A stretch of DNA of 64,000 bases, from NCBI GenBank assembly GCA_951406725.2, contig OX597818.1, positions 54,436,001-54,500,000 on the forward strand, written 5' to 3'. Below the pieces are notes generated by a model. It was not told where the DNA came from. It did no database searches and saw only the letters and a program-made list of their open reading frames with translations. The stretch comes from Octopus vulgaris. Its lineage: Eukaryota. Positions 5,613-55,574 of the stretch are shown one piece after another (within the stretch, counting starts at the first letter, position 1; every line of letters begins with the position of its first letter). A program made the position numbers and the translations under genes.

Positions 5613-6503
5613 TTATGTTAAAGGAAGCTTTTTCCTGTAAAAGTATAATTCTTTTGTTAACATGCTGACTATGGAAGGAACTTGTTTCATTCCATTCATC
5701 TCTGAACCCCCAGCATTAGACTCATATTCATAGGCAACCCTACGATTTACCGAAAGCATTAAGTGTTGCAGTTCAAGTTGGGGTCCGTCTTTTTCCAAAA
5801 TGTGGGCTAACGACTGAATAAATCACGATCCATTAGTGGAACTTCTCCAGGAGTAAAATCCAGGGACAGTGGAATAAGCCAGAAGAATGTCGGCCCAAAC
5901 TGGTACTTTGTGAGGTGTGACTTTTTTATATATGTCTCTAGCATCGACGCTAGCTGCATCGAGCACATCTACACCGCTGTCCATTTTTGTTCCACGACAA
6001 GCTTGTATGAAGAATAGTTTTGGCTTACCTATTAAGCTCGGACATCTCTCACGAAGCAGCATCTCTACTAAAGTATCCAGCTTTACTTTGCCATCAGTGC
6101 CATAAATCTGATTATCGTCTTCACCGTGGGTCAATATAACACAAACGAAGCAGTTATACTTCGTATAGTCCATCCTGGATATATCCGTAAAGATATGCGT
6201 CATCGCATTCACTGATAAATTCTTGCGGTCGAACACCTTAAAATGCAATGACTTCAAAGTTTTTTTTAATTGCTGTTGCATCTCTGTCGGATCCTTGTCG
6301 TTTAGACATTTTAGTCGATTTTTCAAACTTTTCGTTATTTATTATTAAAGCCAGGTTCTCTTTGTTACGATCCATGTCATATCTGGCATTTACAGATTCG
6401 CTATTTTCTTCATGAGACACCATTTCAACATCTTGAGGTTGTGAATCGGGATCTCTCTCTTTAAAAATATACCTTCAACACGTTGTGCATCTACGTAGTC
6501 CAT
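5613..6503 (-). pseudogene. Effector caspase (caspase-3/7-like) copy A, intronless, disrupted
   Basis: ATG at 6503 (MDYVDAQRVEG). Pieces 6238-6423, 5823-6326 and 5613-5798 carry LIINN, ILTHG, FFIQACRG, YSWR and KQVP motifs. Lesions versus copy C: -1 nt in a T-run (~6463-6467), +1 nt in an A-run (6260-6267) and TGG->TGA at 5823-5825. The C-terminus extends to YRKKLPLT. Confidence 0.93.
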
Positions 6504-10440: not shown

Positions 10441-10477
10441 ATATTTAAACATATATTTATATATATATACATATATA

Positions 10478-10578
<101 letters not shown>

Positions 10579-10853
10579 TGCTTGTATTCCTATTTTATAT
10601 GCATAGAATAATATGCTATATGTATGTTACTATAATTTTCATTTAATAAATAATTAAAATTTTAATGTCCTAAAGTTGATGAACCAACTATTGTCATTCT
10701 CTATTTTCTTATTTGCAATATATATAATACAATTGTTCGTTTGTTTTCCACCTGCCTTCGTCGTTTGTTTATTTTCATAAAGCCTCCCGTTATATATATA
10801 TATGTATATGCATAAATATATATACATACATATACATGTATATATTTATATAT

Positions 10854-10912
<59 letters not shown>

Positions 10913-11774: not shown

Positions 11775-11829
<55 letters not shown>

Positions 11830-13865: not shown

Positions 13866-14733
13866 TTACTTGTAAAAGTGTAGTTCTTTTGTTAACATGC
13901 TCACTATGGAAGGAACTTGTTTCATTTTATTCATAGACGAATGGCTGGCATTAGACTCATATTCACAGGCAACCCTACGATTTACTGAAAGCATTAATTG
14001 TTGCAGTTCAAGTCGGTCTCCGTCCTTTTCCAAAATGTGGGCTAACCACTGAATAAACCACGATCCATTAGTGGAATTCCTCCAGGAGTAAAATCCAGGG
14101 ACAGTGGAATAAGCCAGAAGAACGTCGGCCCAAAGTGGTACTTTGAGAGGTGTGACATTTTGATATTCGTCTCTAAAAGCTTGAGCATCGTGCATAATTA
14201 CACCTCTGTCCAGTTTCGTTCCCCGACAGGCTTGTATGAAATATAGTTTTGGCTTACCTATTAAACCTGGGCATCTATCAGGAAGCAACATCTGCACTAA
14301 CTCGTTAAGATTTAGTTTGCCATCAGTGCCATAAATCTGGTTATCGTCTTCACCGTGAGTTAATATAACACAAACGAAGCAATTATACTTCGCATGCTCC
14401 CTCTTGGATATTTCCGTGAAGATTTGCCTCATATCACTCACTGACTAATTCTTGCGGTTCGATCACCTCAAAATGCAATGACTTCAAAGTTTTTTTAATT
14501 GCTGATGCATCTCTGTCGGATCCTTGTCGTTTAGACATTTTAGTCGATTCGTCGAAACTTTCATTGTTGATTATTAAAGCCAGGTTTTCTTTTTTACGAT
14601 CCATGTCATATCTGGTATTTACAGATTCGCTATTTTTTGCAACAGACTCCATTTCAACATCTTGAGGTTGTGAATCGGGATCTCTCTCTTTAAAAAATAT
14701 ACCTTCAACACTTTGTGCATCTACGTAGTCCAT
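13866..14733 (-). pseudogene. Effector caspase copy B, intronless, frameshifted; palindromic partner of copy C
   Basis: ORFs 14434-14733 and 13866-14441 are colinear with copy C. There is a +1 nt insertion at ~14456-14459 and an in-frame TAG at 14445-14447. THG, QACRG and YSWR are intact. Confidence 0.92.
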
Positions 14734-15409
14734 GGTTGAGCGGAATATCTATAAAGCAGCCGAAATGTAGCAGTACAACTTTAAGCCGTGAAATATTGTT
14801 GCAAAATTTGAGGAACGGAAAATAACGATATATTACCTCGGTTTTTCCCTTTGTTCAGCTCAGAAATAGCGGTTAAAATGATCCTGATGGTGCGGATAAC
14901 ACATGCGATTATTCAAAAAAGTATTAATTAATATAAGATAAGAATTTGTAGGATAAAAGATGTAGCTTGATGAACGTACTCCTGGGTTTAATCAATATTT
15001 AAATGCTGAGATCAGTTGATAATTAAGCAAATGTCCACATAGAACTTGATAATTAAAAAGACAGTCCGCTGAGCGTCAATTTCACTGACGATGGGCGTGA
15101 TTCTACAATAGTCACTCAACGCAAGACTACTTCTGCGTCTTATTTATTTTCTATGCTATATATATGATATTATCTGTGTTATATGTTATGCTTCAATAAT
15201 CATGGTTACGTATGAACCAATGAGAGATGACAAGGAAGTTTTCTATGCAATTTCCAAGAAAGAAATAACACAAATATTTTCTGAGAAAACGATATAAAAT
15301 CATTGCTAGGTTTTTGTCCAGTCATATAACGAAACTGAACACACACACATACACACACTCATACTTATCTCTTTATATAGATATGTACATATATAACATA
15401 CACACACAT

Positions 15410-15452
<43 letters not shown>

Positions 15453-15775
15453 TACATATCTCAAGCGTTGCTCATTGCAATTCGTGTAGGCCTAACGACC
15501 CTTAATGTCTGTCTCCATCGTTTGTCTACTCTGCACGTCCACTCTGTATTCGTTCGTTCGTTCGTTCGAAGCTCTGACTCTCCACAAATTTCAGGATGCT
15601 GCTTATGTTTTATGAAGGTTTCCTACGTTATCGTTAAAAGCATGAAACAGGAGTAATAAACAGACCGACAACAGATGTGGAGTTATCTTCTTTTGCTATT
15701 TTGTATTTTTCTCTCGTATGTTTACGTATTTTTCACTCGATGGTGATGCCCTGTACACAATGTGTATCTTTCATT

Positions 15776-18460: not shown

Positions 18461-21164
18461 AATTTACAACATAAAATGTACGAAAAACTACACTTGCAAA
18501 ACAATGTGACAACAGAAATGAACGGACCGGTACCCTACGAAAATGACGACCGTCAAAATAATGGGCCGGGCGTTGTTCCTCATGTCCCGCAAATAAAACC
18601 CAAAAGACATAAATGGACACGTGAGGAATACATTTCTATCCTACACGCTTACTTTACAGCAGTGCTCTACCCAAAGAATGAAAATACAACAACACATACA
18701 TACAAAATATAGAAGAAAAATAACATAAATAAAGACCTGAATACAACAATGAACCCTAATAAACTAGCAAATATACGGAGATATATTCTCAACGCAAAAA
18801 AATATCAGAAATAGAAATAGAACATTTAAAAGAAAAATTACATCAGGAAAATGTAGATAGAAGCCACACAACAATGCCAAATAATATAAACATTGAAACA
18901 GTAAAACACGAAGACAAACGTAACATTTCCAACAAAAACGATGTAAACAACAAAAAAAACCAAAACAAACCCAGACCGTAAGGATACATAATAATACACG
19001 ACAAACAGCAAGCCAAAACACAACAAACAAACATACGGATGAGATAGAAAGCGACACAAATCTAAAACCTGGAAACAACAAAGGGGAGCCTAATGATTAT
19101 GAAACTATAAAAAGTAGAATAATCAAAGAACTGAAAACCACAGAGCTCAAAATGGACCACCGACCATACCTCCCAAAAATTAAAATAGACAAAACAACAA
19201 CATCAATTATAAACAACATATACCTAGCCGTCACGGAACTAATAGCCACTGAACCAAAAAGCGATATCACTGAGCTAAATGACTTAGTATATGCAGTAGC
19301 CACTGCAGCCACAAAAGAACCTGGATACTCACTCAAACCCATCCAAACAGGAGTACCACCACCCAAACAAACCCTGTGGATAAATAACATCCAAACCAAA
19401 ATACAAAAAATGAGAAAAGATCTGTTGATTCTTAATGAAATCAGTAGACAATCAACGCTACTGAGCAACAAAAAGAAAACAAAAATACTCCGAAAATACA
19501 ACACCACAGAAAAAGATTCACCCGAGATAAAAGAAAAGCTGAAGCAAGATATCCTTGCCAAAGCACAAAGGATCCGCCGGTACGAGAAACGCCAACGTTT
19601 CTTTGAACAAAACAAACAGTTCAACTCCAACCCCCAAAAGTTCTACCAAGAACTTGGCAAAAATAAAATAGAAATCACTGCAGCACCAACGGCAGAATTA
19701 GTGGAAGAATTCTGGAGAGAAATATGGTCGGCGAACGAACAACGAAAAAAAAGGAGTATTAAAACAACAAACTCAGCATCTGAGCAACTCTGGACCCCCA
19801 TAACAACTGAAGAGGTCACCCAGGCACTGCAAAGACTAAGCAACTGGAAGGCACCTGGGCATGACAAGATCCCCAACTTCTGTTTGAAATATCTAACAGG
19901 AATGCACAAAAAGCTGGCTGAAAACTTTAACAACATTCTGACAGAGCCAGAGACAATGCCTGAATGGCTCACGAAGGGGAAAACCATCTTAATTCCCAAA
20001 TCAAACGAGACAGCAAAACCAGAAAACTACAGACCAATAACCTGTCTCCCTACAACGTATAAAGCATTTACTGCTGTAATATCGCAAAGATTGAACAAGC
20101 ACCTGGACGAAAACAACCTGTTCCCAGAAGAGCAGAAAGGATGCCGCAAAGGCTCATATGGCTGTAAAGATCAACTAATGATCAATAAAGCCATAACTGA
20201 AGACAGCCACAGAAGGTAGAAAGGCCTCAGTATGGCCTGGATCGACTACAAAAAGGCGTTTGATAGCATCCCCCACACATGGATCCTCGAAACACTAGCC
20301 ATGAATAAAGTTGCACCAACAATTATAAAGTACATAGGACACTCTATGAATAAATGGTAAACAGTGCTACAGCTCCAAACAAAAGAGGGACTTGTGAAAA
20401 CCAAAACCATCCCCATTAGAAGAGGAATATTCCAGGGAGATACGCTCTCTCCACTCCTTTTCTGCTTGGCACTGTCACCTCTATCGGATATGCTAAACAG
20501 AACTGGATGCGGATATAAATGTTACGGCAAAAAGATCAGCCGTCTTTTGTATATGGATGACCTAAAACTTTATGCTACAAATGACAAACAGCTGGAAACA
20601 CTACTAAAGACAGTTCATGGATTTACCAAAGAAATAGATATGAAATTTGGATTAGAGAAATGCGCCAAAGTAACCCTGAAAAGAGGAAAACTAATTAAGA
20701 GTAGCAACATCACACTAGATAAAACCAATGAAATAAAAGAATTAGACCAAAGCCAAACTTACAAATACTTAGGAATCCATGAACTAGATAAGACACAACA
20801 CACACAAATGAAAGAGAAAATAAAAAGAATATTATAGACGAGTTAGATCAATACTAAAAACAGAGCTCAATGCTAAGAACAAGATAATAGGTATTAACAC
20901 TTTAGCGGTCCCACTTATAAGTTACAGCTACAATATCCTTAACTGGACACTAAATGAACTGACCTAAATAGATAGGAAAACAAGAGAAATAATGACATGA
21001 TCTAGGATGCATCACCCAAAATCTACTAGGCACTGCACACATCCTACGCAGAACACTTTCCATACAATAACCGTCAGAGCATCACAACAAATCACAGCAC
21101 ATACCCAAGGCACACAGAGCTGCCCTCGGTAGTGAATTGAAGGCACGATATAAAAAATATACTA

Positions 21165-21167
<3 letters not shown>
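18460..21167 (+). mobile_element. R4/Dong-clade non-LTR retrotransposon, degenerate, C-terminal deletion
   Basis: N-terminal KRHKWTREE motif. RT motifs KAPGHDKI, YRPITCL, EEQKGC, DYKKAFDS, GIFQGD and YMDDLKL. The junction HHPKS|LGTAHILRR removes the ZnF/endonuclease region. The 3' end runs into (TAA)n. Confidence 0.9.
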
Positions 21168-21189
<22 letters not shown>

Positions 21190-21195
<6 letters not shown>

Positions 21196-24050
21196 TAAAA
21201 ATTAAATAATACGGCGATTATCTAACAAAGGGATTGGAATTTTTGTGATATAATTATTAAATAACTAGTAGATATAATTAGTATAATAAAAGGAAAGTGG
21301 TATATTTATTACTAAAAATGTAGAAAATAAAAGATTGTAAAAGCAGAGAGAAAATAATACTAACAAACAGAAACTAAATACAAGTACTGAGAGAGAAAGT
21401 ATATGAAATACAGGGATTGATAAGAACGAGAAATACTAACAATATTAAATTTAGTGGATGGAAATTCATGCAAAAAACCAAGTCTAGAAATAATGCAAGG
21501 GAGAGAACAATCGATAAATTATTATTATTATCTCCCTTCATCTGTGCATTGATTTTGAAAACTCTTGTAGCATCTCAAAATGCAGATCACCACCACTTTG
21601 CAGTTTACTTTTAAGTAAATATTTAAGAAATTCATAAAAAGTATGGAGTACAATGAGAATAATATTAGTATAAATAAAGAAGACAGTTGTCTCATAGGAA
21701 AAGAAAGATTTATTAAGATATTAGGCGCAGGAGTGGCTGTGTGGTAAGTAGCTTGCTAACCAACCACATGGTTCCGGGTTCAGTCCCACTGCGTGGCATC
21801 TTGGGCAAGTGTCTTCTGCTATAGCCCCGGGCCGACCAATGCCTTGTGAGTGGATTTGGTAGACGGAAACTGAAAGAAGCCTGTCGTATATATGTATATA
21901 TATATATGTGTTTCTTTGTGTGTCTGTATTTGTTCCCCTAGCATTGCTTGACAACCGATGCTGGTGTGTTTACGTCCCCGTCACTTAGCGGTTCGGCAAA
22001 AAAGAGACCGATAGAATAAGTACTGGGCTTACAAAGAATAAGTCCCGGGGTCGAGTTGCTCGATTAAAGGCGGTGCTCCAGCATGGCCAGAGTCAAATGA
22101 CTGAAACAAGTAAAAGAGAAAAGAGAAAGAGATATTAGGAAATAATTATTACATAATTTTGGTATAAGAAAAGGAAGATCATATATTTATCCTTTATAGA
22201 GACAGAGTTTCCGAAATATAAAGCTGGATATCCTGGGAGGGAGCCACTCAATTAGAGCGAGCCCAATACGCAACTGATACTTAATATATCACTCCAGAAA
22301 GGATGAAAGGCAAAGTCGACCTCGGCGCAGTTTGAACTTGGAACGTAGCGGCAGACAAAATACCTATTTCTTTACTACCCACAAGGGGCTAAACACAGAG
22401 GGGACAAACAAGGACAGACACACGGATTAAGTCGATTACATCGACCCCAGTGCGTAACTGGTACTTATTTAATCGACCCCAATTGGATGGAAGGCACAGT
22501 CGACCTCGGCGGAATTTGAACTCAGAACGTAACGGCAGACGAAATACGGCGTGCTAACGATTCTGCCAGCTCGCCGCCTTAATAGGGCTGGATATCAACA
22601 ATAAAAATATGAACAACATTAAAAAACAAAAAAAAAAAGGTGGTGCTCCAGCATGGCCGCAGTCAAATGACTGAAACAAGTAAAAGAGAATGTAAAAGAG
22701 AATAGGTTCAAATATATAAGTAAATAGAGAAAAGATAGTAATATAGGATAAGATTAGTATAATTCAGTATTGTAGAATGGGATAGATTAAAGTATATGCC
22801 GTAAATAATCGGAAAAAAAATATTGATATGCAATCATTAAAATATTGTTTAAAATACATAATTATAGTTATAATACAGGTAGATACGCTAAAAATTACTT
22901 TTATACCTAAATATCTTATAAACATTGTTAGTATTTCAATATGTTCAAAGTATGAATTGTTTTATTGAAGATGATGCAATTGACAATAAAAATAGTTAAA
23001 TATTATTACATGGAGTATAAATGATTATTATTAGTGAAGAAGGGAAATAACAATAAAGCTATCATTTGTATTTATGCAGACATGAAAATCACTCATTTAT
23101 GAATAAATGAATTTATTCATAAATTTATTTATTTATTTATAGATAACATAAAATAATATATATATTATAAAATAAATTACGCGTATATGTTTTAATTTAT
23201 GAAACAATCTATTGTGATATTTGAATTTTTCTATGGTTAAGTAAATTTCTCCATACTAATTTTCTCGTCATTTATAAATTCACACACATACTCACACACA
23301 CACAAACACACACACGCACGAACGAACGCAGACACATACACACACACACGCATGCATACTGATGCACTAATATATCTGCATATGTGTACATTTGCATTCT
23401 CGTATTTTGAACGATGTACATAGATGCCATACTTGGGTATGTGTATGTATGTATGTATGTATGTATGTATGTATGTCAGGTCACTTTCGAGTGCTACTGG
23501 TAACATGTATTTACTTATATATTTGAACCTATAATCATTAATTTCAAGTTGTTCATATTCTTCTTGATGATATCCAGCTGATATCCAGCGCTATATTTTG
23601 GAAATTCTGTCTCTATAAAGGATTACAATATGATTTTCTTTTTCTTATACCAAAATTATGTAACAATTATTTCCTAATCTATTAATAAATCCCCCTTCTC
23701 CTCTTAGAAAACCCTCTTATTAATTTATATTCATATTATTCTCATTGTACTCCATACTTTTTATGAATTTCTTAAATATTTACTTATATTTTCATGACTA
23801 AAATTTAATATATATCATATTTCTCTTGTTGGTATCCATCCCTGTATTTCGTAAACATTGTCTCTAAATACATTTATTTGGTTTCAGTTTGTTAGTATTA
23901 ACGTTTATTTTCTACAGTTTTAGTAATAAATATACCACTTTCCTTTTTTTATACTAATTATATCTACTAGTTATTTCATAATTATATCACAAAAATTCTC
24001 TTCCGTTTTTATAGATAATCGTATTATTTTATATTAATTTTATTATTATT
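21190..24050. repeat. AT-rich element with long diverged inverted repeats (foldback-like); mirror at ~33390-36380
   Basis: 21200-21720, 22135-22230 and 22588-22727 together are the reverse complement of 23505-24040; the left repeat is interrupted by SINEs. Confidence 0.75.
21724..22130 (+). mobile_element. tRNA-derived SINE (Octopus-type); mirror at 35442-35849 (-)
   Basis: A box (gtggctgtgtggtaag) and B box (ggttcagtccc), internal (TA)n, and tail ...gtcaaatgactgaaacaagtaaaagag. Confidence 0.85.
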
Positions 24051-24276
24051 ATCTTCCACAACTTCTAACGTTCTGTTTAAAGATTAACTTTGCGATTTTG
24101 GAACTTGATGTCGAGACATTAATATGTAACAAAGATTTTAAAAATTTTACCTGAGGATGTAGTTTACAATCAATCAACCATCTATCCATCCATCCATCCA
24201 CCTATCCATCTATCAATCTGTCTCTTTTAATACTTTGCATGTACCCTGTCTTCGCGTTGTTGTTTCTTTTTCTTGT

Positions 24277-24327
<51 letters not shown>

Positions 24328-24499
24328 AAATTAGGGAAAAAACCCTATTATGCAATTCAAACAACGATAGACATAAACCGAATCATAAAGAAAACATAAA
24401 ATATATTATAAAACATTTATATATATTATATATTTATATTGTGAAATTTGATTTAATACTAAATTGAATTTTTCCCTGTATGGTTGGAGTTATACTCCC

Positions 24500-25510
<1,011 letters not shown>

Positions 25511-25516
25511 TGGCAA

Positions 25517-26942
25517 AAATGGCAAACAGTGCTACAGCTCCAAACAAAAGAGGGACTCATGAAAACCAAAGCCATCCCCATTAGAAGAGGAATATTCCAG
25601 GGAGACACGCTCTCTCCACTCCTTTTCTGCTTGGCACTGTAACCTCTATCTCATATAATAATGACAGAATCTAGGATACATCACCCAAAATCTGACGTAG
25701 ATAGACTATATATACAACGTATAGAAGGTGGTAGAGGCCTTATACAGCTGGAAAACTACTATAAAATAACCACCATAGGACTGCAAAAATATCTACTTCA
25801 GAAGGAAGGAAAACTGATACAAATAGCGGCAAAACACGAGCAAAACAAAAAACTGTTCTCAGTATTTAAGGAAGCTGACAAATACAAACAAGAAATCATA
25901 CCACCTAATAAATATGAAGAAGAAGAAGAAGAAGAAGAAGAAGAAGAAGAAGAAGAAGAAGAAGAAGAAGAAGAAGAAGAAGAAGAAGAAGAAGAAGAAG
26001 AAGAAGAAGAAAAAACAAAAGCTATAAAACAAATGAAATCCAAACTGAAAATAGAACAGCAACGAACCGTGATAAAACGATGGCAAGAAAAGCCTCTTCA
26101 TGGTAAATACTGGACTAAACTAAACGCAAAAGAAATAGACAAAGAAAAATCCCAGCAATGGTTGAAAAGCTCAGGACTCAAAGCAGAGACAGAGGGATTT
26201 TTTATTGCAGCACAAGACCAAAGCCTCCCCACCAGAAATTACCAAAAACATGTAATGAAAAGAAATATAACGAGTAACTGCAGAATATGTGGAGATGGAC
26301 AAGAAACTATAAATCATATTATCTCTGGCTGCCCAGTCCTGGCTAAGAAGGAATATATTCACAGACATGACAGAGTTGGAACCTACATACATTGGAAGCT
26401 ATGCCAACATTATGGAATAACAACAGAAAAAAGATGGTATAGGCTCACACCAGAAAGGGTCACAGAAAACGAGAAAGCAACCATATTCTGTGATATAACG
26501 ATACACACAAGTAGAGAAATTAAGGCCAACAGACAAGATATAGTTGTCCGAGATCATGAAGAAAAAAAATGCTTTCTAATTGATGTATCAATACCGGCAG
26601 ATGACAATGTGTCTCTAAAAGAAATGGAGAAACTTTCAAAATACAAAGACCTGGAAATAGAGGTAACCAGAATGTGGAATCTAAAAACAGAAACAATCCC
26701 TATCATAGTAGGTGCATTAGGCATGATTAAAAAATATTCAGACAAATACATAACAAAAACACCAGGACTTACAAACACATATAACATACAGAAAATTGCA
26801 CTACTAGGCACTGCACACATCCTACGCAGAACACTTTCCATACAATAACCATCAGAGCAGCACAACAAATCACAGCACATACCCAAGGCACACAGAGCTG
26901 CGCTCGGTAGTGAAGTGAAAGCACGCTATAAAAATAAAACTA

Positions 26943-27739: not shown

Positions 27740-30700
27740 TAATATACGCACACTAACTAACGCATATATACGTATAAATACATATATGCGGACACACATA
27801 TAAATATTAATAAAATAAAGAGAAAAAGATTATAAGTCCTGAGTGGTTCTCTCCCCTTGTGAGAAATTCTCCCATCATTCTATTTCTTATTAATCTCACT
27901 CGCTTCGGAAGCATCCGTAGGTGGAAGTACTAACAGTCGCCTGTCGAAATTCTCACGTGTGTGTTATACGATGCTAGAATTCTGAATGCTACTAATGGCA
28001 ATGTACCATGGCGAAATGAAACATATAGGAAATTGATCCCTCCTAAGTCATCTTGACGTGGAAATACGAAAAGAGTCCTGGAATTCAAACCCGAGAAAAA
28101 CGCAGTGAGGCATGTATGTAGTTTGTAGAGAAAACGGTAATCGAGCTTACACGAAGAACTATAAAACAAGGTGAATAAGTACTGGAAAGAATGAGAGGAA
28201 TAAAATAAGATCCTCCAAAGACTCACAGGATGAAATCTTGAACAGTTAAGAGATTTTCCCTCTTTCTTTCATTCAATCTCTTTGACTCTTTGTCTCTCCT
28301 CTACTGGACCAAAAACAGAAAATATAGATTGCTCTTGCGTATAACGTAAATTTAATTTTAAATTACTCTGAGGATTTCATTGCCTTACCTCTGTCTCTTC
28401 ACTTTTTGTTTCCACTGTAAAGAGAGAAAAACAACAACAAAAAAAAAGACAAAGAAGAGAAGAAGATCGATCGCATATAGTTCCTAAAATGTTTTAAATG
28501 AATATAGACCAACTAGTTTCATAATCCCGGGTTACGTTGCATCGATATGCTCCAATGAGAGCGAAATAACGTTATATGCAGGTACAAGGACACCCAAAAT
28601 GGGAAAAAAATTAAAAAAACTATTTTTAAGGAAATATTATTTCATGTTCACTAAATCATAGGAAAATGCTATCACTCTATAATAATGAGGCAAAAAGATT
28701 AAAAATGAAAAAAGAGTGTAAGTCCTGAGCGGTTCTCTCTCTTGGAGGGAAAATTTTTCCTCCTTTCTATTTCGCAAACTCTCTTTCTCTACGTGTTACT
28801 GCTCCAACGGTCGCCGAACAGACTGTTTAGCTCGTTATCGTCAAAGTCTAGAGTTTCCCCGAGAACTTCGTCGCATTTTTCTTCCACGAATCCTCTATAA
28901 AACGTTAGAGTGGAACTACTACCGATCGCATTGCCCGCTTGGCGGAGGGCTGAGAGAGCTTGACGGCACTCGAGGTGCCAAGCGCCCTTTCTCGGTTTGC
29001 ATTTGATCCAAGATTGCAGCTCTGTCAAAGAGACGAACTGCGGAAAGTCGCGTCTGAAAAAAGACGACCACACCTGTTCACCGTCTAGGAAACGCTTGAG
29101 ATGCCGTAGCCTGAGCGTATGTCTGCGCATCAGTAAACAAGGCATGCCAAGGCCTCCGTTCATCGGCCGTTGACAGCAGATGGAGCGCCTGGCCAGTGGT
29201 ACTCGACCCTTTCACAAAAAGTTGAAGAGCAAACGCACCAGCGAGATGTCGAACGGCTCCGAGCAGAGTGATGGGCCTAAAGTTCCCTATAACGTCCACC
29301 TTGTTTGTGTCCTTTCTCAGCAAAGCCACCACTCCTCGACAAACAAAAGCAGGAATTCTCCCGTTTTGTTGTCAGTTGCAGTAGACGTTTGCCAAGAGGC
29401 CCGCAAACAAGTCTGGCATTGAAGTGTAAAGCTCGTAGGGCAGAACATCCAAACCCGGCGATCTGCCTCTCGTGCAGCTCTTCATTGCTTCCTCCACTTC
29501 CCAGGCAGATATCGGTCTTTCGCAGCACTCCACCTCGCTGTCCGAGAGTTGCGGTAGGCCGTCCAGGTACACACTGAAGTATGTCCCGTTGTCCGTCCCA
29601 AACAGTTGAGCAAACACCGCACACATCTGCTTTGGCTCGGAAACCTCGCACCCGTTCTGGTCCACCAAAGACCGAATGGTCGCTTTGTTGCCGCGCTTCG
29701 CCTCCGCCACGCGGGCCCATCGAGCGGCCTTAGTTCCCTCCCCGCTTAGCGAACGTGCCTTAGCTCTGACAACGCAGCCTTCGTGTTTGGCGTCAAAGTG
29801 TTGGTCGAGGGCCAACCTTGCCGCCAATACGTCGGTTGCAATGCCTGTCTCAAGAGCCTCGTCTAGTTTTCTAACTAAATCCCGCTCTGTTTTCCTACGT
29901 TCTACTGCTTGAGCTTTAATAAACCTAATCGATTCTGCTCTAATTGTTCTCTTGAGAGCAAACCACCAGTTGCTGTTGATGACTGTCCCCGTGAGAGCCC
30001 GTTTAACTAATAAAATAATCCGGTCTCTGTAGGCTTTGCACGCCGTTAACGATGCGTTCAGCTTCCAGTAGCCAGGACCCTGTCTATGTAGCCAATATAA
30101 GTCGATTGTACAGATCACGAATTTGTGGTCCGTGTAGTCGACTAGGTGGAATTGTGGACACCTTATGCTGTCCTTATCCGCTGGCCTACAGAAAGTACGA
30201 TCTAGACGATCCGATGCGATTAGTCCAAGTCCACATTGGCACATTCGAGTTGTCCAGTCGAAACCTGCCGGACAGCTGAAAGCGCCTGAGCAGGTTGGCG
30301 AGGCTCTTGCACCCCTCTCTCCCATCAGATGCTCCCGTGCCCACCCGATCGAAACGTTCGTCTAAGACAGCGTTCCAATCCCCAACTAGCACTAGAGTGC
30401 GTGACGTTCCCAAGAAAACCTCCAAACGTTTGAAATAATCGGACTGCCCTGCCCCTGTCGGAGCGTAGGCAGCCAGCAGTCTGAAAACACCGCCGTCACT
30501 ACCGTCAACGTCGAGGACCACCAACTTACTTTCTGGATCCAGGAAGACCGTCTTTATTTTCAAATCAAGGCACTTCCGAAACAACACCGCAGTACCACCA
30601 CCGCCCGCTTCCGACCGACACGGAGATAGAAAAATCTCGTATCCGCCGAAAAGGGCTGCGAGTTACCGCGGGTCAGAGAGCCTGGTTTCGCTAATGGCTG

Positions 30701-36453: not shown

Positions 36454-38998
36454 TAGTATATTATTTATATCGTGCTTTCACTTCACTACCGAGCGCAGCT
36501 CTGTGTGCCTTGGGTATGTGCTGTGATTTGTCGTGATGCTCTGACGGTTATTGCATAGAAAGTGTTCTGCGTAAGATGTGTGCAGTGCCTAGTAGATTTT
36601 GGGTGATGCATCCTAGATCCTGTCATTATTTTTCTTGTTTTCCTATCTATTTTGGTCAGTTCATTTCGTGTCCAGTTAAGGATATTGTAGCTGTAACATA
36701 TAACTGGGACAGCTAAAGTGTTAATACCTATTATCTTGTTTTTAGCATTGAGCTCTGTTTTTAGTATTGATCTAACTCGTCTATAATATTCTTTTTTATT
36801 TTCTCTTTCATTTGTGTGTGTTGTGTCTTATCTAGTTCATGGATACCTAAGTATTTGTAAGTTCGGCTTTGGTCTAATTCTTTTATTTCATTGGTTTTAT
36901 CTAGTGTGATGTTGCTACTCTTAATTAGTCTTCCTCTTTTCAGGGTTACTTTGGCGCATTTCTCTAATCCAAATTTCATATCTATTTCTTTGGTAAATCC
37001 ATGAACTGTCTTTAGTAGTGTTTCCAGCAGTTTGTCATTTGTAGCGTAAAGTTTTAGGTCATCCATATACAAAAGACGGCTGATCTTTTTGCCGTAACAT
37101 TTATATCCGCATCCAGTTCTGTTTAGCATATCCGATAGAGGTGACAGTGCCAAGCAGAAAAGGAGTGGAGAGAGCGTATCTCCCTGGAATATTCCTCTTC
37201 TAATGGGGATGGTTTTGGTTTTCACAAGTCCCTCTTTTGTTTGGAGCTGTAGCACTGTTTGCCATTTATTCATAGAGTGTCCTCTGTACTTTATAATTAT
37301 TGGTGCAACTTTGTTCATGGCTAGTGTTTCGAGGATCCATGTGTGGGGGATGCTATCAAACGCCTTTTTGTAGTCGATCCAGGCCATACTGAGGCCTTTC
37401 TACCTTCTGTGGCTGTCTTCAGTTATGGCTTTATTGATCATTAGTTGATCTTTACAGCCATATGAGCCTTTGCGGCATCCTTTCTGCTCTTCTGGGAACA
37501 GGTTGTTTTCGTCCAGGTGCTTGTTCAATCTTTGCGATATTACTGCAGTAAATGCTTTGTACGTTGTAGGGAGACAGGTTATTGGTCTGTAGTTTTCTGG
37601 TTTTGCTGTCTCGTTTGATTTGGGAATTAAGATGGTTTTCCCCTTCGTGAGCCATTCAGGCATAGTCTCTGGCTCTGTCAGAATGTTGTTAAAGTTTTCA
37701 GCCAGCTTTTTGTTCATTCCTGTTAGATATTTCAACCAGAAGTTGGGGATCTTGTCATGCCCAGGTGCCTTCCAGTTGCTTAGTCTTTGCAGTGCCTGGG
37801 TGACCTCTTCAGTTGTTATGGGGGTCCAAAGTTGCTCAGATGCTGAGTTTGTTGTTTTAATACTCCTTTTTTTTTTTTGGTTGTTCGTTCGCCGACCATA
37901 TTTCTCTCTTGCTTCAGCTTTTCTTTTATCTCGGGTAAATCTTTTTCTGTGGTGTTGTATTTTCGGAGTATTTTTGTTTTCTTTTTCTTGCTCAGTAGCG
38001 TTGATTGTCTACTGATTTCATTAAGAATCGACAGATCTTTTCTCATTTTTTGTATTTTGTTTTGGATGTTATTTATCCACAGGGTTTGTTTGGGTGGTGG
38101 TACTCCTGTTTGGATGGGTTTGAGTGAGTATCCAGCTTCTTTTGTGGCTGCAGTGGCTGCTGCGTATACTAAGTCATTTAGCTCAGTGATATCGCTTTTT
38201 GGTTCAGTGGCTATTAGTTCCGTGACGGCTAGGTTTATGTTGTTTATAATTGATGTTGTTGTTTTGTCTATTTTAATTTTTGGGAGGTATGGTCGGTGGT
38301 CCATTTTGAGCTCTGTGGTTTTCAGTTCTTTGATTATTCTACTTTTTATATGATCATAATCATTAGGCTCTCCTTTGTTGTTTCCAGGTTTTAGATTTGT
38401 GTCGCTTTCTATCTCATCCGTATGTTTGATTGTTGTGTTTTGGCTTGCTGTTTGTCGTGTATTATTATGTATCCTTACGGTCTGGGTTTGTTTTGGTTTT
38501 TTTTTGTTGTTTACATCGTTTTTGTTGGAAATGTTACGTTTGTCTTCGTGTTTTACTGTTTCAGTGTTTATATTATTTGGCATTGTTGTGTGGCTTCTAT
38601 CTACATTTTCCTGATGTATTTTTTCTTTTAAATGTTCTATTTCTATTTCTGATATTTTTTGCGTTGAGAATATATCTCCGTATATTTGCTAGTTTATTAG
38701 GGTTCATTGTTGTATCCAGGTCTTTATTTATGTTATTTTTCTTCCATATTTTGTATGTATGTGTTGTTGTATTTTCATTCTTTGGGTAGAGCACTGCTGT
38801 AAAGTAAGCGTGTAGGATAGAAATGTATTCCTCACGTGTCCATTTATGTCTTTTGGGTTTAATTTGCGGGACATGAGGAACAACGTCCGGCCCAATATTT
38901 TGACAGTCGTTATTTTCGAAGGGTACCGGTCCGTTCATTTCTGTTGTCACATTGTTTTGCACGTGTAGTTTTTCGTACATTTTATGTTGTAAATTTAC
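36451..38998 (-). mobile_element. R4/Dong-clade LINE, mirror copy
   Basis: ORFs 38597-39007, 37816-38583, 37400-37735 and 36761-37387. It has the same C-terminal deletion as the left copy, plus a private ~170 bp deletion near 37905. Confidence 0.9.
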
Positions 38999-38999
38999 A

Positions 39000-41900
39000 C
39001 ACCCCACACTGACCTTCCTACGCCTACCCCATCTTCACCCAACTATTCCAAATCTCCTCCCCACACCTCTGCACCCCTTCTTCCTGACCCCACTCATCCC
39101 ACCACCTTGCTTCCTCTCACTGTTGTCACTATACCCCCCAATCTCCCCCTCTCCGCTGTCGAGCGCTCTCTCCTCAGTAAGGAACTCCGCTTCACACCTC
39201 TCACGCGCCACTGTGGCGAATTTGAGACCCGGACCGAAGTCAACCAGTTCCTGCGCCGCCTCAAACTTTGCGCGTTTTCCCACGCGTCCCCACATCGTCA
39301 CGACAATCAGGATTGCTTTTTGGAGCTGGGTCGCCGCCCATCCAACTGGACGCCACCCCCAGGCCAATTCAGTAGCCTAGATTTGTTCGTGAACGACTGC
39401 AATGCGTTGGTCAACCAATTCAACTTCAAAAAAGACCTCTCCGAGACAACCTCACTCGGGCTGAATCGATTGCCCTTCGCAACCTCCGTCGCCGCAATGA
39501 CATTGTCATCAAACCGGCAGACAAAGGCGGAGCAGTGGTGGTGTGGCGAGCGTACCTATACAGGGAAGAAGCGCTCAGCCATGTTCAAAATCCCCTCTTC
39601 TATCGCCTACTCCCCTCCAATCCTACCTCCTCCTACCAACAGCGAGTGTCCTCCACCATCCACGACCTCATCTCCTCTTCTGCTTTCCAACCCACCGTCA
39701 CCAACCTTATCGTCCGTACACCCCGAAGCTCTACCATCTATTTCCTTCCCAAAATTCATAAACCCAATAACCCTGGCCACGCCATCGTTTCCACCTGTAA
39801 TTGTCCCACCGAACGCATTTCCCTATACCTCGACCGCATTCTGTCTCTGCCCTCCCATCTCACATACATGACACTAACCACGCCCTTCGTCTCTTCAATT
39901 CCTTTTCCTTCCCTCCCAGCCCCTCACACCTCCTCTTTACCTTAGACATCAAATCCCTTTACACTGTGATTCCCCACAACGACGGTTTCTTAGCCCTCCA
40001 ATACTTCCTCGACCGTCGAAGCGACCCCTACCCCAGCACCCCACCCTTCTCCGCTTAGCAGAGCTCGTCCTCACCCTCAATTGCTTTACGTTCGCCGGGG
40101 AAATGTACGAACAGTGTCTGGGGTCGCGATGGGAATGAGAATGGTCCCCAATTTTGCCAATCTCTTTGTTGGCTACATTGAGGCCCAAGCATTCTCCCAA
40201 TTCTCCGAGCCGACCGCAGAGCTATACGGTCGCTACATAGACGACTGCATAGGCGCCACATCCCTCTCCCGCGAACAACTCTGCCACTTCATCTCTTTCC
40301 TCTCTAACTTCCACCAATTCTCTCCAATTCACTTCTACCATCTCTTAATACCTCTGTTAACTTCCTTGACATCTCTCTTAGCATCGACCACCCATCCCAC
40401 TCTCTCACCAACTCCTCCTTCTTCATACCCACGGATTCCCACCTCTATCTCAACTTCTCCTCCTCCCATCCCTTCCACACCAAACAGGCCATCCCCTACT
40501 CCCAGTTCCTCCGCCTTCGACGCTTGTGCAGCCGCGACCAGTATTTTGAGACTCAGTCTCAGTACCGGGCACGCCTGTTCAGGCATCGAGGATACCCCCC
40601 AACCCTGGCCTTGAACGCCCTTACCCGCTCTCGCCGAATCGACCGCACCACCGCCCTTTCTCACTCCTCTCACCAACCCACTAACCGCACCCCCTTTCCC
40701 CTCCTTTCCACCCCTCCACTCTACCCTTTCGTCGGAGGATACTACGTGCCTTCCGTCGTCTCCAGCTCGATCCCACGACCCGCCTCATTTTCCCCGACCC
40801 ACACTCGTCATCCTTCAAACGAGCCCGGAATCTACGCGATCTCCTGGTCCGTAGCACCCTCTCCTCTTCCCCCTCAGCCCCACATGGATCCTTCCCGTTC
40901 TCCAGATACCACTGCAACACCTGCCCCTTCATCACCAACACCACTGCTGTCACCGGCTCCAACCAGCGAACTGTACGCATTAGACATTCTTTTACGTGCA
41001 CTTCGTCTGGCCTCATCTATTGCATAAAATGCAACCTCTGCTTTATGCAGGACAGACGGGCCGCCGACTGGCCGACCGGTTCGCCGAACATCTAAGGGAT
41101 GATCGGCTGCGTACCAATTCTCCCGTCGCCCGTCACTTGTGCTCGGCCAACAATTTCCCCGGTGACATCTCTGTGTTTGATCTCGCCCCACACAACGGAC
41201 CTCCACAATCCAGGCTTCACTTGGAGCAACGGTTTATTTTCACTTTTACAGACTAATACCACGCACGGACTCAACACAGCCCCCTCCTCTTAGTGACTGC
41301 GTCTCCACCTCCCGCAACAAGCAACTTTATTTCTTATTTCTTATCTCTTCCTTCTTTTCTTTTTTTCTTATTTTCTTTTCTTTGTCTTTTTTTCATTTTC
41401 TTTCCTCACGTGCTATTACGTCTTTTATTTTATTATTTTATTGTTTTATAATTTTTTTGTTTTCTTAGTGTTTAAATTTTTTATTATTTTATTATTTTTA
41501 TAAATTATTGTTCTTATACACAAACACATACACACACATACTCACGTATCCACGAACACACACACATCTCTAACACACCACACACATACAACATACATGC
41601 ACATATACGCACACATACTTCCACACACATACACACACGCATACATACACAAATACACACACCCACACACACCCACGCGCACACACACATATGGCCATGT
41701 ACACACACATATGCCCGTGCACACACACACATATGCCCGTGCACACACACACGTACACAAACGTACACACACGCAAAGAATGCACAGAAACCTATCCCAT
41801 CCAACCCCATGCACACACAGACACGCATACCTTTAGACACACACACATAGCCACATACACGCACATACTCAAGCACACGCGCGTACACACAATCAAATGA

Positions 41901-48880: not shown

Positions 48881-49174
48881 GTCTGTTTCATGCTTTTAAC
48901 GATAACGTAGGAAACATTCATAAAACATAAGCAGCATCCTGAAATTTGTGGAGAGTCAGAGCTTCGAACGAACGAACGAATACAGAGTGGACGTGCAGAG
49001 TAGACAAACGATGGAGACAGACATTAAGGGTCGTTAGGCCAACACGAATTGCAATGAGCAACGCTTGAGATATGTATGTGTGTATGTGTGTGTGTGTGTG
49101 TGTGCATGTGTGTGTATGTTATATATGTACATATCTATATAAAGAGATAAGTATGAGTGTGTGTATGTGTGTGT

Positions 49175-49781
49175 GTTCAGTTTCGTTATATGACTGGACA
49201 AAAACCTAGCAATGATTTTATATCGTTTTCTCAGAAAATATTTGTGTTATTTCTTTCTTGGAAATTGCATAGACAGCTTCTTTGTCATCTCTCATTGGTT
49301 CATACGTAACCATGATTATTGAAGCATAACATATAACACAGATAATATCATATATATAGCATAGAAAATAAATAAGACACAGAAGTTGTCTTGCGTTGAG
49401 TGACTATTGTAGAATCACGCCCATCGTCAGTGAAATTGACGCTCAGCGGACTGTCTTTTTATTATCAAGTTCTATGTGGACATTTGCTTAATTATCAACT
49501 GATCTCAGCATTTGAATATTGATTAAACCCAGGAGTACGTTCATCAAACTACATCTTTTATCCTACAAATTCTTATCTTATATTAATTAATACTTTTTTG
49601 AATAATCGCATGTGTTATCCGCACCATCAGGATCAAATTAACCGCTATTTCTGAGCTGAACAAAGGGAAAAAACCGAGGTAATATATCGTTATTTTCCGT
49701 TCCTCAAATTTTGCAACAATATTTCACGGCTTAAAGTTGTACTGCTACATTTCGGCTGCTTTATAGATATTCCGCTCAACC
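49175..49781 (+). promoter_or_regulatory. Conserved ~600 bp caspase upstream region (also 6504-7110 -, 14734-15340 -, 62790-63395 +)
   Basis: Near-identical non-repetitive sequence precedes all four ATGs. It ends ...gctgctttatag|atattccgctcaaccATG, a possible splice acceptor 15 nt before the ATG. Function is inferred only. Confidence 0.45.
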
Positions 49782-50648
49782 ATGGACTACGTAGATGCAC
49801 AACGTGTTGAAGGTATATTTTTTAATGAGAGAGTTCCCGATTCACAACCTCAAGATGTTGAAATGGAGTCTGTTGCAAAAAATAGCGAATCTGTAAATAC
49901 CAGATATGACATGGATCGTAAAAAAGAAAACCTGGCTTTAATAATCAACAACGAAAGTTTCGACGAATCGACTGAAATGTCTAAACGACAAGGATCCGAC
50001 AGAGATGCATCAGCAATTAAAAAAACTTTGAAGTCATTGCATTTTGAGGTGGTCGAACGCAAGAATTTGTCAGTGAGTGATATGAGGCAAATCTTCACGG
50101 AAATATCCAAGAGGGAGCATGCGAAGTATAATTGCTTCGTTTGTGTTATATTAACTCACGGTGAAGACGATAACCAGATTTATGGCACTGATGGCAAACT
50201 AAATCTTAACGAGTTAGTGCAGATGTTGCTTCCTGATTCATGCCCAGGTTTAATAGGTAAGCCAAAACTATATTTCATACAAGCCTGTCGGGGAACGAAA
50301 CTGGACAGAGGTGTAATTATGCACGATGCTCAAGCTTTTAGAGACGAATATCAAAATGTCACACCTCTCAAAGTACCACTTTGGGCCGACGTTCTTCTGG
50401 CTTATTCCACTGTCCCTGGATTTTACTCCTGGAAGAATTCCACTAATGGATCGTGGTTTATTCAGTCGTTAGCCCACATTTTGGAAAGAGACGGAGACAA
50501 ACTTGAACTGCAACAATTAATGCTTTCAGTAAATCGTAGGGTTGCCTGTGAATATGAGTCTAATGCCAGCCATTCGTTTATGAATAGAATGAAACAAGTT
50601 CCTTCCATAGTAAGCATGTTAACAAAAGAACTACACTTTTACAAGTAA
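49782..50648 (+). CDS. Effector caspase (caspase-3/7-like, peptidase C14A) copy C, 288 aa, single-exon CDS
   Basis: Uninterrupted ORF with Kozak-like caaccATGG. Catalytic His126 (ILTHG) and Cys169 (QACRG) are present. It has p20 and p10 motifs (LIINN, KPKLYFIQAC, DVLLAYSTVPG, GSWFIQSL, KQVP) and a short prodomain with no CARD or DED. Confidence 0.96.
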   Translation: MDYVDAQRVEGIFFNERVPDSQPQDVEMESVAKNSESVNTRYDMDRKKENLALIINNESFDESTEMSKRQGSDRDASAIKKTLKSLHFEVVERKNLSVSDMRQIFTEISKREHAKYNCFVCVILTHGEDDNQIYGTDGKLNLNELVQMLLPDSCPGLIGKPKLYFIQACRGTKLDRGVIMHDAQAFRDEYQNVTPLKVPLWADVLLAYSTVPGFYSWKNSTNGSWFIQSLAHILERDGDKLELQQLMLSVNRRVACEYESNASHSFMNRMKQVPSIVSMLTKELHFYK

Positions 50649-50804
50649 AATCTTCGTTTAATATACGTTCTCCCAATCTCCCCTCAATTAATATATATAT
50701 ATATATATCAAAGCAACTTATAAGCAAGGGCAAAAAACAATTCTAATGCCAAAAATGCCTAAAAAAGACAAAATGTCAATAACCATATGTTCTATCGCAA
50801 TTAA

Positions 50805-50936
50805 TGTATGTATACATGCATGAACACATACATACATACATACATACATACATACATACATACATACATACATACATACATACATAAATGCATAAATGCA
50901 TAAATGCAAGTATACATACATACATACATACATACA

Positions 50937-50970
<34 letters not shown>

Positions 50971-50984
50971 CATGCACGCATGTA

Positions 50985-51018
<34 letters not shown>

Positions 51019-51096
51019 CATGCACGCATGTATACATACATACATACATACATACATACATACGTACATACATACATACATACATACATACATACA

Positions 51097-51130
<34 letters not shown>

Positions 51131-51190
51131 CATGCACGCATGTATACATACATACATACATACATACATACATACATACATACATACATA
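50805..51190. repeat. (TACA)n tetranucleotide tract 3' of the caspase (equivalents 5183-5405, 13481-13705; others 33963-34185)
   Basis: Direct reading; length differs between units. Confidence 0.95.
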
Positions 51191-52409
51191 AGCTTTTTCC
51201 CCGTTTTCTGTTCTGTTGTCAGAACTTGGTATTTCGTTTAATAGTAATATTTTTACGTACATCAAAATTTATTTCCTGTAATATTTGAGAGTGAGCCTTG
51301 CAGCTGGTACTTTGTAAACTTATCATTCTACTGTTGAGGATGATAACACGACTTTGCAAAGTTTCCATTATAACACATGAAATTTACTAAACTCTTCTAC
51401 TTTACTAAATCTTTGTCTTTACGAACATTTTCGCTGAAATAATTAGAATGCTGTAAAAGTATAACATTCATAATTCGGTTTATTCTTAATACTAATGGCA
51501 CACACACAAACACACACACACACACATACACACACGCGCGCGCGCACACATATATATAACCTTGATATTTCTACTTCTCCGTTTCCAGTTCTTTTCTGAG
51601 AACTTATTTTGTTTGATTGTAATATTGTTTTTATGTTCATCAAAATTTATTCAGTAACATATGACAGAGAACTGATAACATTGGTAATTTGATTTTACTT
51701 CTTAACATTAATGGCAGAAACTATTATTTCCTTGTTCAATTGTTGTCCAGTGGACTTATAATAAAATTGCATTGCAACCATGAACATCATTTTTCGCTAT
51801 TTTTATTAAGACTACATCGCTTTATACGGTCTTTCAATTCTTAACACGGTTGGCTGTTATTTCAGAGTTGTTTGAATGCTACATCGACATTTCTTCAGTT
51901 TCTCACCAGTCACCACTACTGCACTTACGTTTATAACCTGTTAACAATTTCACTTTTTTTCCGATTGATTTACCTAATTAACAACACTTTACGCCGGCTG
52001 CAAGGTAAAGAATTTTTCAACCAAATGTCGCAGGCGCAGATTGAGCAACGATTCAAGAGTCAAAGATTGCCAATAATACGATGACTAAGACTTTGTTAAA
52101 ATTGCAAGGCTGAAGAACCATTCTCAAGAACTAGCGATAAATTTAACAACAGCTGCGCAACATATCATTGCTGACTAATACAAGATTGGAAATAATGTTT
52201 CTATTTACACTGCTAAGATAATGTCCCAGGATAAATTCATGCAGAGCCATTCCTCAGTTCTTGACTGGAATCTCTTCGACCAAATTGTAACCGTGGAATG
52301 TTTCCTCTGAAATCTTGATCGATTCAAAAGTAAAAACAGAGAATACAGTGGATATACGATCTTTAGAAAAACTCGAGATAAAAGAGAATCTTTGATAGAT
52401 ATAAAGACT

Positions 52410-52650
52410 GGAGCGGGAGTGCGTGGCCAAGCGGTTAGTTAGTTGTACCCACGAGTTCAAAATCATGGTTTCGATTCTAGGACCGGGCAGTGTGTGGTGT
52501 TATTGAGAAAAACACTTCATTTCTTACTGTGTCAGTCCACTCGGTCGTAAATGAGTAAACCTGTGACGGACTTGAATCCTGTTGAGGACGAATGTTGCGA
52601 TTTCGGTTACTGAAACGCTGTGGAATTGGGTAACCCGACATGTGAATCCG
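52410..52650 (+). mobile_element. Old tRNA-derived SINE in the caspase unit (also ~3760-3992 - and ~12005-12235 -)
   Basis: gcgtggccaagcggttag A box and ggtttcgattct B-box-like motif; conserved body gttattgagaaaaacacttcatttc..gtccactcggtcgtaaatgagta. Confidence 0.65.
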
Positions 52651-53688
52651 AGGATCTCGAGACAGTAATTATTTGCACCTGCAAAAGGAAAAAGAGAAAA
52701 CATTCAAAGAAAACGCTCCAGTGCAGCGAGGTGGCCACCGACTACCCGTCAACACAAGCCAACAAAACGACTGCATTCACATACTTTTATCTGGCAACGC
52801 TCACTGTATTTATGCACCATACATCTCTCTCTCTCTCTCCTTCTTTTTTTCTTTCTCTCTCAAACACTCTCTCCGATGAAGCTATAAGGTGTTATTCCGG
52901 TACTGAACTATGACTTCATTGCATCCGATAGCAGAAACGACTGTAAGTCTCTGCAGTTCAAAAGATAATTCTTTATTCTTTTGTCATCTCATTTTCTTCT
53001 TGCAATTCTGTACTCGACGAACTCTTCGTCATGATGCAGATGTATATTGAGCTCTGCACCCGGTTATTCAGGAAATGAAAGAAGGTAAATCCACATCGGG
53101 TAACACCAAACCAAATTTCAGCTTTCCCCTTCTATCAGTGCAAAGAAGCAATTTCTTTACAAGGACGTTTAAATAAAGGAAATTCATTCATGGAAAAATA
53201 CAGAACACGTATAATATGAAAGCATAACCAACTTTAATCTCTATACATATTTCAATTCACGGTTACATACACATCACTATAAATATTTCTTCCCACTACT
53301 CAAGCTTTTGAAAGTTTGTGCATATATATATTTCCCCATCACCACCGAAAGATGAACAAATATCTCCCCTGTCCACAATATTAATAATTACCTCCCCGTA
53401 CATTTTTCTACTTCTTGAATCATTCATAAATTCCACACACATGGACAAAAAAAATTTTCTGAAGAGTATAAGTATCTAAATAAGTTTTAATGTCATGATT
53501 AGCGAAAGCGAAACCGGTTGACAAACACAATATAAGATATATTAAAAATTATATCAAACCTATGTGAAGTGTGGGGATTTTGCTTCTTTAATTTTTTGTT
53601 TATATTACAACTCACCACGTAGGGATAATGGAAATTCCTCGTTTCTTCTTCTTATACATGTATATATATGTATGTATATGTATGTATG

Positions 53689-53736
<48 letters not shown>

Positions 53737-53935
53737 TATACATGTATATGTATGTATATATATTTATGTATATACGTATATATATATATTGCAAATAAGA
53801 AAATAGAGAAGCACAATAGTTGGTTCATCAACTTTAGGACATTAAAATGTTAATTATTTATTAAATGATAATTATAGTAACATACATATAGCATATTATT
53901 CTATGCATATAAAATAGGAATACCAGCAATACATA

Positions 53936-54009
<74 letters not shown>

Positions 54010-54579
54010 TAAATATTTGTTGTGCAAGATTGTTTATGTGAAGTCGTGTGTTGAAACAGATATTGTTATATTTCGGAATGGTCATATTACCAGTTTAGCC
54101 AATAAAAACACACGCACTATATATTTGGTGTTATTTTGCTTCAGTGATATTTATTTTTTACATTAATCTTAATCTTATTTCGGCCAGAGTTCTTTCGTCA
54201 CACTCCTGTGACCGCATCAGTGGTCCTTTGTTTTCTTCTTTCGTATTTATGTCTCTCCTTACTAACCGTCAGCCATTTTGTGTTTCTATTGTATGTCTTC
54301 ATTTGCGCATGCTTATATCTCTATGTGCGTCTATGTTTATTTAGTGTGTGTGTGGGGGGATGCCTGTAATATTTGTATCTTCTGTTTATATACATTCATG
54401 TAATTTGTATTTTGTTTTTGTTGTTGTTGCTTTTGTTCTAATTTTGTTCATGTGTTTACATCCACCCATTATTATCATTACATATGCTTGTATGTATGTA
54501 TAACAACAATATTAGTAATAATAAAAATAAATCTAATCGAAAAAAAAAAATATATATATATATACATATATATACACAT

Positions 54580-54644
<65 letters not shown>

Positions 54645-55215
54645 TACATACATATACATACACATATACATAGATATATATACATATATATAGTTATTCA
54701 TTTCTATTTGTTTATTTATTTGTGTATTTATTATGTTTTCAGGATCGTCTCTCGTCATATGTTGTGGTGTGTGCTATTGGTCCATTCTAGTTTTCTATTC
54801 AGGCTAGGTTTATTTTCTATTATATGTGTAGCTTCTGTAATTTGTCTAATTGTTGCATCTGTTCTATGTGTGAACAATATCTTAATCTCTATGTTATTGA
54901 TTGATACCCCGTGTTCCTGTTCGGCGTGTTGGTACAGAATCGATGAGCTTTTACCTTCCTTGAGTTGTCTCCAATATCCATTCACCCGCTCTCCTATGCT
55001 TCTTGCCGTTTCCCCTACGTATGTTATTGTCTTGTTACTGCATCGTCCCTCTATACATCTTATACTATAGACTACATTTCTGGCTTTACAGTTTGTTTGT
55101 GGGCTAAATCTACATACAGTGCAATAGTTATCCGTACAGGGGGTTCTACTAAAAGGATAGGTTCTACCAATTATAGATTTGATACGGATAACTATTGCAC
55201 TGTATGTAGATTTAG
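54010..55215 (-). mobile_element. Penelope-like GIY-YIG 3' part, mirror copy
   Basis: Reverse complement of 9271-10440; ORF 54755-54985. Confidence 0.85.
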
Positions 55216-55574
55216 AAAATGACGTAATCTGCTATCAGTGTTGTAACTGTTAAGAGAAAGAAAATGAAGTAGTGAGACTTTTTATAGACGTACCTGAAGA
55301 GACATTGAACAGGTCGAAACATGTATTGTACCCAATATAGTCTATTACACATTCCATATATTTTATTAATAATATATTTATATATAAAGTTAATCCAAGC
55401 AAGAAAGCACAAAAAAACACAACAACTAAGGACGTGGAACAAATATAGTATTATTGGAGGCTCAGGAAAGAAGGAAAGAAGGAGGCTTTAACGTTTCGAG
55501 CGGAGTTCTTTGTCTGAAACATAGGAGAAGGAAAGATCCAAAGAAGGGAAGACAGAGGGAAAAAATCGCCCATT

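Follow-up and report, generated by a model that had tools for sequence, protein, structure and literature searches.

The caspase-3-like cluster

The 64,000-nucleotide stretch of Octopus vulgaris DNA analysed here (the window) lies within a tandem cluster of caspase-3-like genes that occupies about 375 kb of contig C5 (G000:C5:54146356-54521227) and contains fifteen intact and seven broken intronless open reading frames in mixed orientation (extraction of the copies gave 24 rows, in which two broken copies each appear twice). Identical proteins carry the name caspase-3-like, Octopus vulgaris, in the database sources, and named related copies exist in O. sinensis, O. bimaculoides and Argonauta. 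Four copies fall within the window; codon 218 (copy C numbering) is the site discussed below:

5631..6503, minus strand: copy A (L019), a pseudogene with frameshifts and a TGA at Trp225; AGA at codon 218
13866..14733, minus strand: copy B (L016), 97.8% identical to copy C, the inverted arm facing it; AGG (Arg) at codon 218
49782..50648, plus strand: copy C (L001), an intact single-exon caspase-3/7-like executioner gene encoding 288 amino acids
63396..64000, plus strand: copy D (L013), truncated by the window end; the genome copy is intact, encodes 286 amino acids and has AGA (Arg) at codon 218

An earlier note on this DNA had taken copy C for the only complete intact caspase. That impression arose because the window edge cuts copy D, which is one of the fifteen intact frames; the note's reading of Arg in both A (AGA) and B (AGG) is correct. 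Copy B is broken by a 1-nt insertion and by a TAG at C-frame codon 96. The cluster shows signs of gene conversion and is probably a birth-and-death array whose copies exchange sequence.

Copy C and its Lys218 codon

The copy C frame is open throughout and matches a single Pfam family, Peptidase_C14 (PF00656; residues 50-284, E=1.3e-61), preceded by a prodomain of 49 residues; no CARD or DED was found. The best PDB matches are to caspase-3 (E about 1e-67), and the YSWKN of copy C aligns without gaps to the YSWRN of the caspase-3 chains, so Lys218 occupies the position of caspase-3 Arg207 and caspase-1 Arg341. This second S1 arginine lines the pocket with Arg179 and Gln283 (caspase-1 numbering), and according to PMC10088814 and PMC12550167 it also binds P3. 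The frame and the alignment confirm that the AAG encodes this lysine, and the role given earlier to the replaced arginine, binding of the P1 Asp, holds as well. The residues that matter here are:

49986..49988, plus strand: Arg69 (CGA), the other S1 arginine (caspase-3 Arg64), kept
50157..50159, plus strand: catalytic His126 (in THG), kept
50280..50294, plus strand: QACRG motif with S1 Gln167 and catalytic Cys169, kept
50433..50435, plus strand: Lys218 (AAG), the position of caspase-3 Arg207 and caspase-1 Arg341; L002 has the same codon

His126, Cys169, Arg69 and Gln167 are thus all present, and lysine stands solely at the second S1 arginine. Like the executioner caspases-3/7 (C14A, PF00656), copy C has a short prodomain, a His-Cys dyad, QACRG, equivalents of Arg64 and Gln161, and a YSW-x-N-x-x-x-GSWF loop; unlike them it has Lys for Arg207, is intronless and belongs to a cluster of fifteen intact copies. 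Among four features of the pocket or the catalytic centre, three are normal. The S1 triad (Arg179, Gln283 and Arg341 in caspase-1) is incomplete, its third residue being Lys218, and this lowers the claim to canonical Asp-specific activity and leaves family membership unaffected. On its sequence, copy C is a C14A caspase of the executioner type, predicted at most to perform DEVD-type cleavage after Asp. It lacks the marks by which a pseudogene was recognised: its frame has neither a shift nor an early stop, and the catalytic dyad is intact.

Residue 218 in related caspases

Twelve of the fifteen intact cluster copies have Arg at this site (AGG in three, AGA in nine), two have Lys (copy C and L002) and one, L012, has Glu. 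Among the best 120 of 641 homologues the counts are Arg 111, Lys 2 (copy C itself and P0028), Glu 3, Thr 1 and gap 3, and from rank 37 downward all 84 of them have Arg. The arginine, which had been called invariant, therefore holds in the great majority, but octopuses depart from it with Glu in L012 and in O. sinensis P0010 and P0025, and with Thr in O. bimaculoides P0020. P0025 and P0020 are read from their alignments as further independent arginine losses in octopus expansions. P0025 also has its catalytic Cys replaced by Ala. At the other caspase loci of the same genome (29 frames at 26 loci, a subset of 77 genome caspase matches), the site is Arg in 19, a gap in 4 and another residue in 6: Ile in two, and Glu, Asn, Ser (in a poor alignment) and Lys (in a 133-aa fragment) in one each. 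Among the Arg-bearing caspases outside the cluster are one without introns, on C3, and one on C7 that appears to be split into exons. Because the site has also changed to Glu, Thr, Ile and Asn, which editing could not restore to Arg, ordinary mutation is the favoured source of the lysine.

L012 (G000:C5:54350690-54351553, minus strand) is intact and has Tyr-Glu in place of Trp-Arg at 217-218, a reversal of charge in the S1 pocket. It may have been maintained as a decoy or as a caspase of altered specificity, and it seems of greater interest than copy C.

The same could be asked of Lys218, which, like Glu218 of L012, might have been selected, in a cluster that diversifies its substrate groove, because it alters P1/P3 preference or makes the copy a decoy, a partner of low activity that tunes its Arg siblings. 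Such a role would fit the variation of residues 216-224 among the intact copies (Ser/Ala, Trp/Tyr, Arg/Lys/Glu, Asn/Ser/Arg, Ser/Thr), the retention of Lys in two intact frames, and the 99.7% identity of L012 to O. sinensis P0010, the closest ortholog pair among those compared. The loop as a whole speaks against it: conserved columns that vary make up 4 of 10 in residues 209-228 versus 9 of 48 elsewhere, a difference that is not significant (Fisher p=0.15), and pN/pS in the loop is low (0.35). Also against it, no named Lys ortholog from O. sinensis or O. bimaculoides is present among the best 120 of 641 homologues, and the sister Lys copy has a probably damaging substitution (below). We regard selection for a new specificity or a decoy function as unlikely.

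Three more tandem clusters of caspase-like open reading frames are present in the genome, at C19:7.04-7.13 Mb, C28:6.29-6.38 Mb and C26:33.70-33.81 Mb (L026-L036, L038, L039 and L043-L049). Several of their frames have altered catalytic motifs (EASRG, QTCRG and ATCRG, and NTCQ in the C26 set), and some have Ile or Glu at the second S1 position.

History of the Lys-bearing copies

A young clade (support 100/100, dS 0.02-0.03) unites C with L002 and B. L002 (G000:C5:54393218-54394081, minus strand), the second copy with Lys218, encodes a protein 95% identical to that of C; the exact L002 protein is absent from the protein collection searched. Within a conserved strand it carries the probably damaging change Leu205Pro, which falls in a column where conservation among 93 outgroups is at least 95%. 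Together with the two lesions of B this is decay within the clade, a point in favour of drift. Pairwise dN/dS within the clade is 0.77-0.99, versus 0.51 for the full set of intact pairs. These ratios come from small counts, and high values are also reached by other young pairs (0.46-0.86), so they give weak support for relaxed constraint, and not for one peculiar to this clade. Copy C is in addition a mosaic, with scattered bases common to L003, L004 and L006 where L002 and B differ, which suggests gene conversion and active exchange between copies.

The reading that we prefer, with a probability of roughly 0.68, is that a paralogue that is both young and redundant acquired Lys218 through an ordinary G>A transition, which has been tolerated there and has left a weakened aspartate-specific protease. 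The transition would have created a genomic lysine now common to C and one young sister copy, and it is likely tolerated because twelve siblings keep Arg. Lysine would preserve the positive charge and lose the two-point salt bridge to the P1 Asp as well as the contact with a P3 Glu; with these guanidinium contacts gone, activity on DEVD-type substrates is expected to be lower. The copy would then drift, its constraint relaxed, among the sequence-exchanging members of a birth-and-death array, and an ADAR step would be unnecessary. The earlier note had as its fallback a G>A transition that leaves the enzyme weakened or altered, and this is the best-supported of its proposals. The intactness of C, the presence of C-type segments in RNA-like runs (below) and the existence of two Lys copies fit selection as well as drift. 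A search of literature listings for the activity of an executioner caspase with Lys in place of this arginine found nothing relevant.

Proposed RNA editing of A50434

Copy C had been proposed to be switched by A-to-I editing, in which a single edit of A50434 would turn AAG into AGG and restore Arg, the ancestral residue by the counts given above. The base has A on its 5' side and G on its 3' side. ADAR neighbour preference favours this 5'A/3'G context, and an A-C mismatch is preferred likewise. The distance of one edit and the favourable context are true of the codon, but both are automatic for any AGG>AAG change and so are no evidence of editing; a 5'A/U with 3'G context is found at 29 of the 289 adenosines in the copy C coding sequence. 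In folds of 50-300 nt on each side, A50434 belongs to the base pair that closes the loop of a 5-bp hairpin (probability 0.58-0.81), folding predictions being a weak guide for coleoid editing sites. No long local duplex over A50434 was found and no long complement lies downstream within the window, which would count against editing. Long complements occur in the window solely as the inverted copies B and A, which lie upstream by 36 kb or more on the divergent side. A point on the other side is that a hypothetical antisense RNA from B could form a 97% match with C across the site and would set A50434 opposite a C base, in an A-C mismatch.

According to PMC6881472 and PMC8382921, restorative sites, at which the edit reverses a G>A change at a conserved position, are enriched among coleoid editing sites, so the idea of a restorative edit here is not absurd. 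Copy C resembles such sites in having a conserved-site G>A that an edit could reverse. It differs in that one-to-one orthologues were analysed (PMC6881472), whereas C is a young multicopy paralogue in which a duplex was not found. The published rates are low: for O. bimaculoides the same source gives the edited fraction of potential restorative sites as 0.0093-0.0095 (brain) and 0.0003-0.0023 (other tissues), and it places 89.78% of Octopus restorative sites at editing levels of 0-20%, with a median under 2.5% (PMC6881472). The words caspase, CASP3 and CASP7 are absent from the 64,827-character text of the PMC8382921 editome supplement, which perhaps lacks the site tables. Literature listings contained nothing relevant on A-to-I recoding of caspases in cephalopods, and at the level of listings and abstracts no report was found on this cluster or on editing of the caspase S1 residue.

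The cluster itself gives little encouragement. A switch could be circumvented through the twelve siblings that encode Arg without editing. Arg and Lys both occur at 14 of the 288 columns among the fifteen intact copies, and over 216 codons the cluster pN/pS is 0.74 for G>A, which does not exceed the 0.78 for A>G. Nonsynonymous G>A is not in significant excess relative to C>T (Fisher p=0.41), so the cluster bears no harm-permitting signature. With the contigs described below, in which the differences match paralogue bases, these results leave the proposed activity switch unsupported, and we consider it very unlikely that ADAR restores Arg in some transcripts, whether as harm-permitting editing or, in the strong form, as a tissue-specific switch. 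If it did, recoding would be gating the substrate pocket of a protease, for which cases are rare. The most elaborate version, to which we give hardly any credence, would make both C and L002 editing-gated executioners, weak by default with Lys218 and fully active with Arg218 once A50434 is edited, for instance in a duplex with antisense RNA of the inverted pseudogene B that puts an A-C mismatch exactly at the site; RNA editing would then set the threshold of cell death tissue by tissue.

Sequencing-run contigs

The run evidence consists of assembled, collapsed contigs from 8 of 24 listed runs, among which X3, X5, X6, X7, X13 and X19 are presumed to be RNA and X1 is a DNA run. Among X1, X2, X3 and X5, every contig that covers position 50434 has G there (five in X3, three in X5 and three in X1), and X2 does not cover it. 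G-only contigs in the RNA-like X3 and X5 are what editing would give, but the DNA run X1 is likewise G-only, which shows that the pattern arises without editing. In X3 and X5 the differences, 32 in all and 7 of them A>G, each correspond to a base of a genomic paralogue (37 difference rows were recorded in that run set, 32 of them from X3 or X5). For these two reasons the contigs are neutral on editing.

A uniform G raises another explanation: the sequenced animal may carry a Lys allele that is private or rare and that gene conversion has copied between C and L002, or else the codon may be an assembly artefact, and most animals would have Arg in copy C. The lack of A at 50434 in any contig of X3, X5 or X1 would agree with this, as would the active exchange implied by the L003, L004 and L006 tracts in C. 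An artefact is contradicted by the genome, in which the 29-nt context of the AAG occurs exactly twice, in C and in L002, 92 kb apart and with different flanks, so that an assembly error is unlikely; as for an allele, contigs lose the variants of lower depth, and the absence of A is uninformative. A private allele or artefact is in our view quite improbable, and an ordinary transition remains the preferred origin of Lys218.

Exact C-type segments are present at 50010-50183 in X3 and 50016-50183 in X5, both spanning the C-unique base 50052, and at 50469-50577 in X6, with near-exact pieces in X19 and in X13, the latter under another organism label. Since these runs are RNA-like, copy C is probably transcribed. 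Bases diagnostic of B also occur in RNA-like runs (50467G in X3 and 50068A in X6, in C coordinates), and broken copy B or one of its alleles may still be transcribed. The idea that the X6 contig with the B base at 50068 represents an intact B in other animals was dropped, as that base itself makes a stop.

False A>G editing calls are to be expected in this cluster, for which it serves as a warning, because AGG paralogues match C on both sides of the site, L003 for 54 and 40 nt and B for about 195 and 32 nt. The polymorphism suggested earlier for phasing, TCG versus TGG, is not specific to C: TCG is present in fourteen other intact copies including L003, and since L003 combines it with AGG, phasing on it would mislead. 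The bases that do serve lie in the following span:

50368..50473, plus strand: valid phasing span, in which 50368T, 50467C and 50473C together separate C from the AGG copies L003, L005, L007 and B, and from L002

Comparison with known systems

The nearest precedent is murine caspase-12, whose activity is reportedly confined to self-cleavage. Like copy C, it has a natural genomic replacement of Arg by Lys at the second S1 arginine, and by analogy the Lys218 enzyme is probably weakened as the Lys341 enzyme is. It is an inflammatory-type CARD caspase, whereas C belongs to the executioner type and is a young paralogue surrounded by many Arg siblings. PMC2709109 reports both the Lys at the Arg341 position and proteolytic activity of the murine enzyme. 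With this precedent, the most likely reading matters little in itself, since it concerns one drifting paralogue in a multigene array. The natural Arg, Lys and Glu variants of a single S1 position in a near-identical background do offer a cheap test of what the arginine contributes.

In its lineage-specific multiplication of executioner caspases the cluster resembles the caspase-3/7 expansions of bivalves and Euprymna scolopes, as described in abstracts and in PMC9389742. In titles and abstracts, the literature on molluscan caspase expansion yielded nothing on the octopus cluster or on S1 variants. Caspase-3-like proteins, which might include products of this cluster, have been detected in octopus skin mucus (PMC11431876).

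The inverted duplication and other features of the window

A large inverted duplication pairs about 2700-15650 of the window with about 48900-55100. B mirrors C within it, and its arms agree at 90-97% across several kb and, for the segment around the two copies, at 95.7% over 2.2 kb. The centre of the duplication lies near 32 kb in a retroelement-rich region. Degraded non-LTR retrotransposon frames with RT-like pieces, putative from their translations, are found at 18924-26848, 28789-30662, 36486-38688 and 39376-41095, and two of these copies are alike at about 97%. GIY-YIG-like fragments, also putative from translations, lie at 9231-9707 and 54755-55231, and an imperfect (AAT)n/(TAT)n trinucleotide repeat of about 900 bp is present at 24434-25415.
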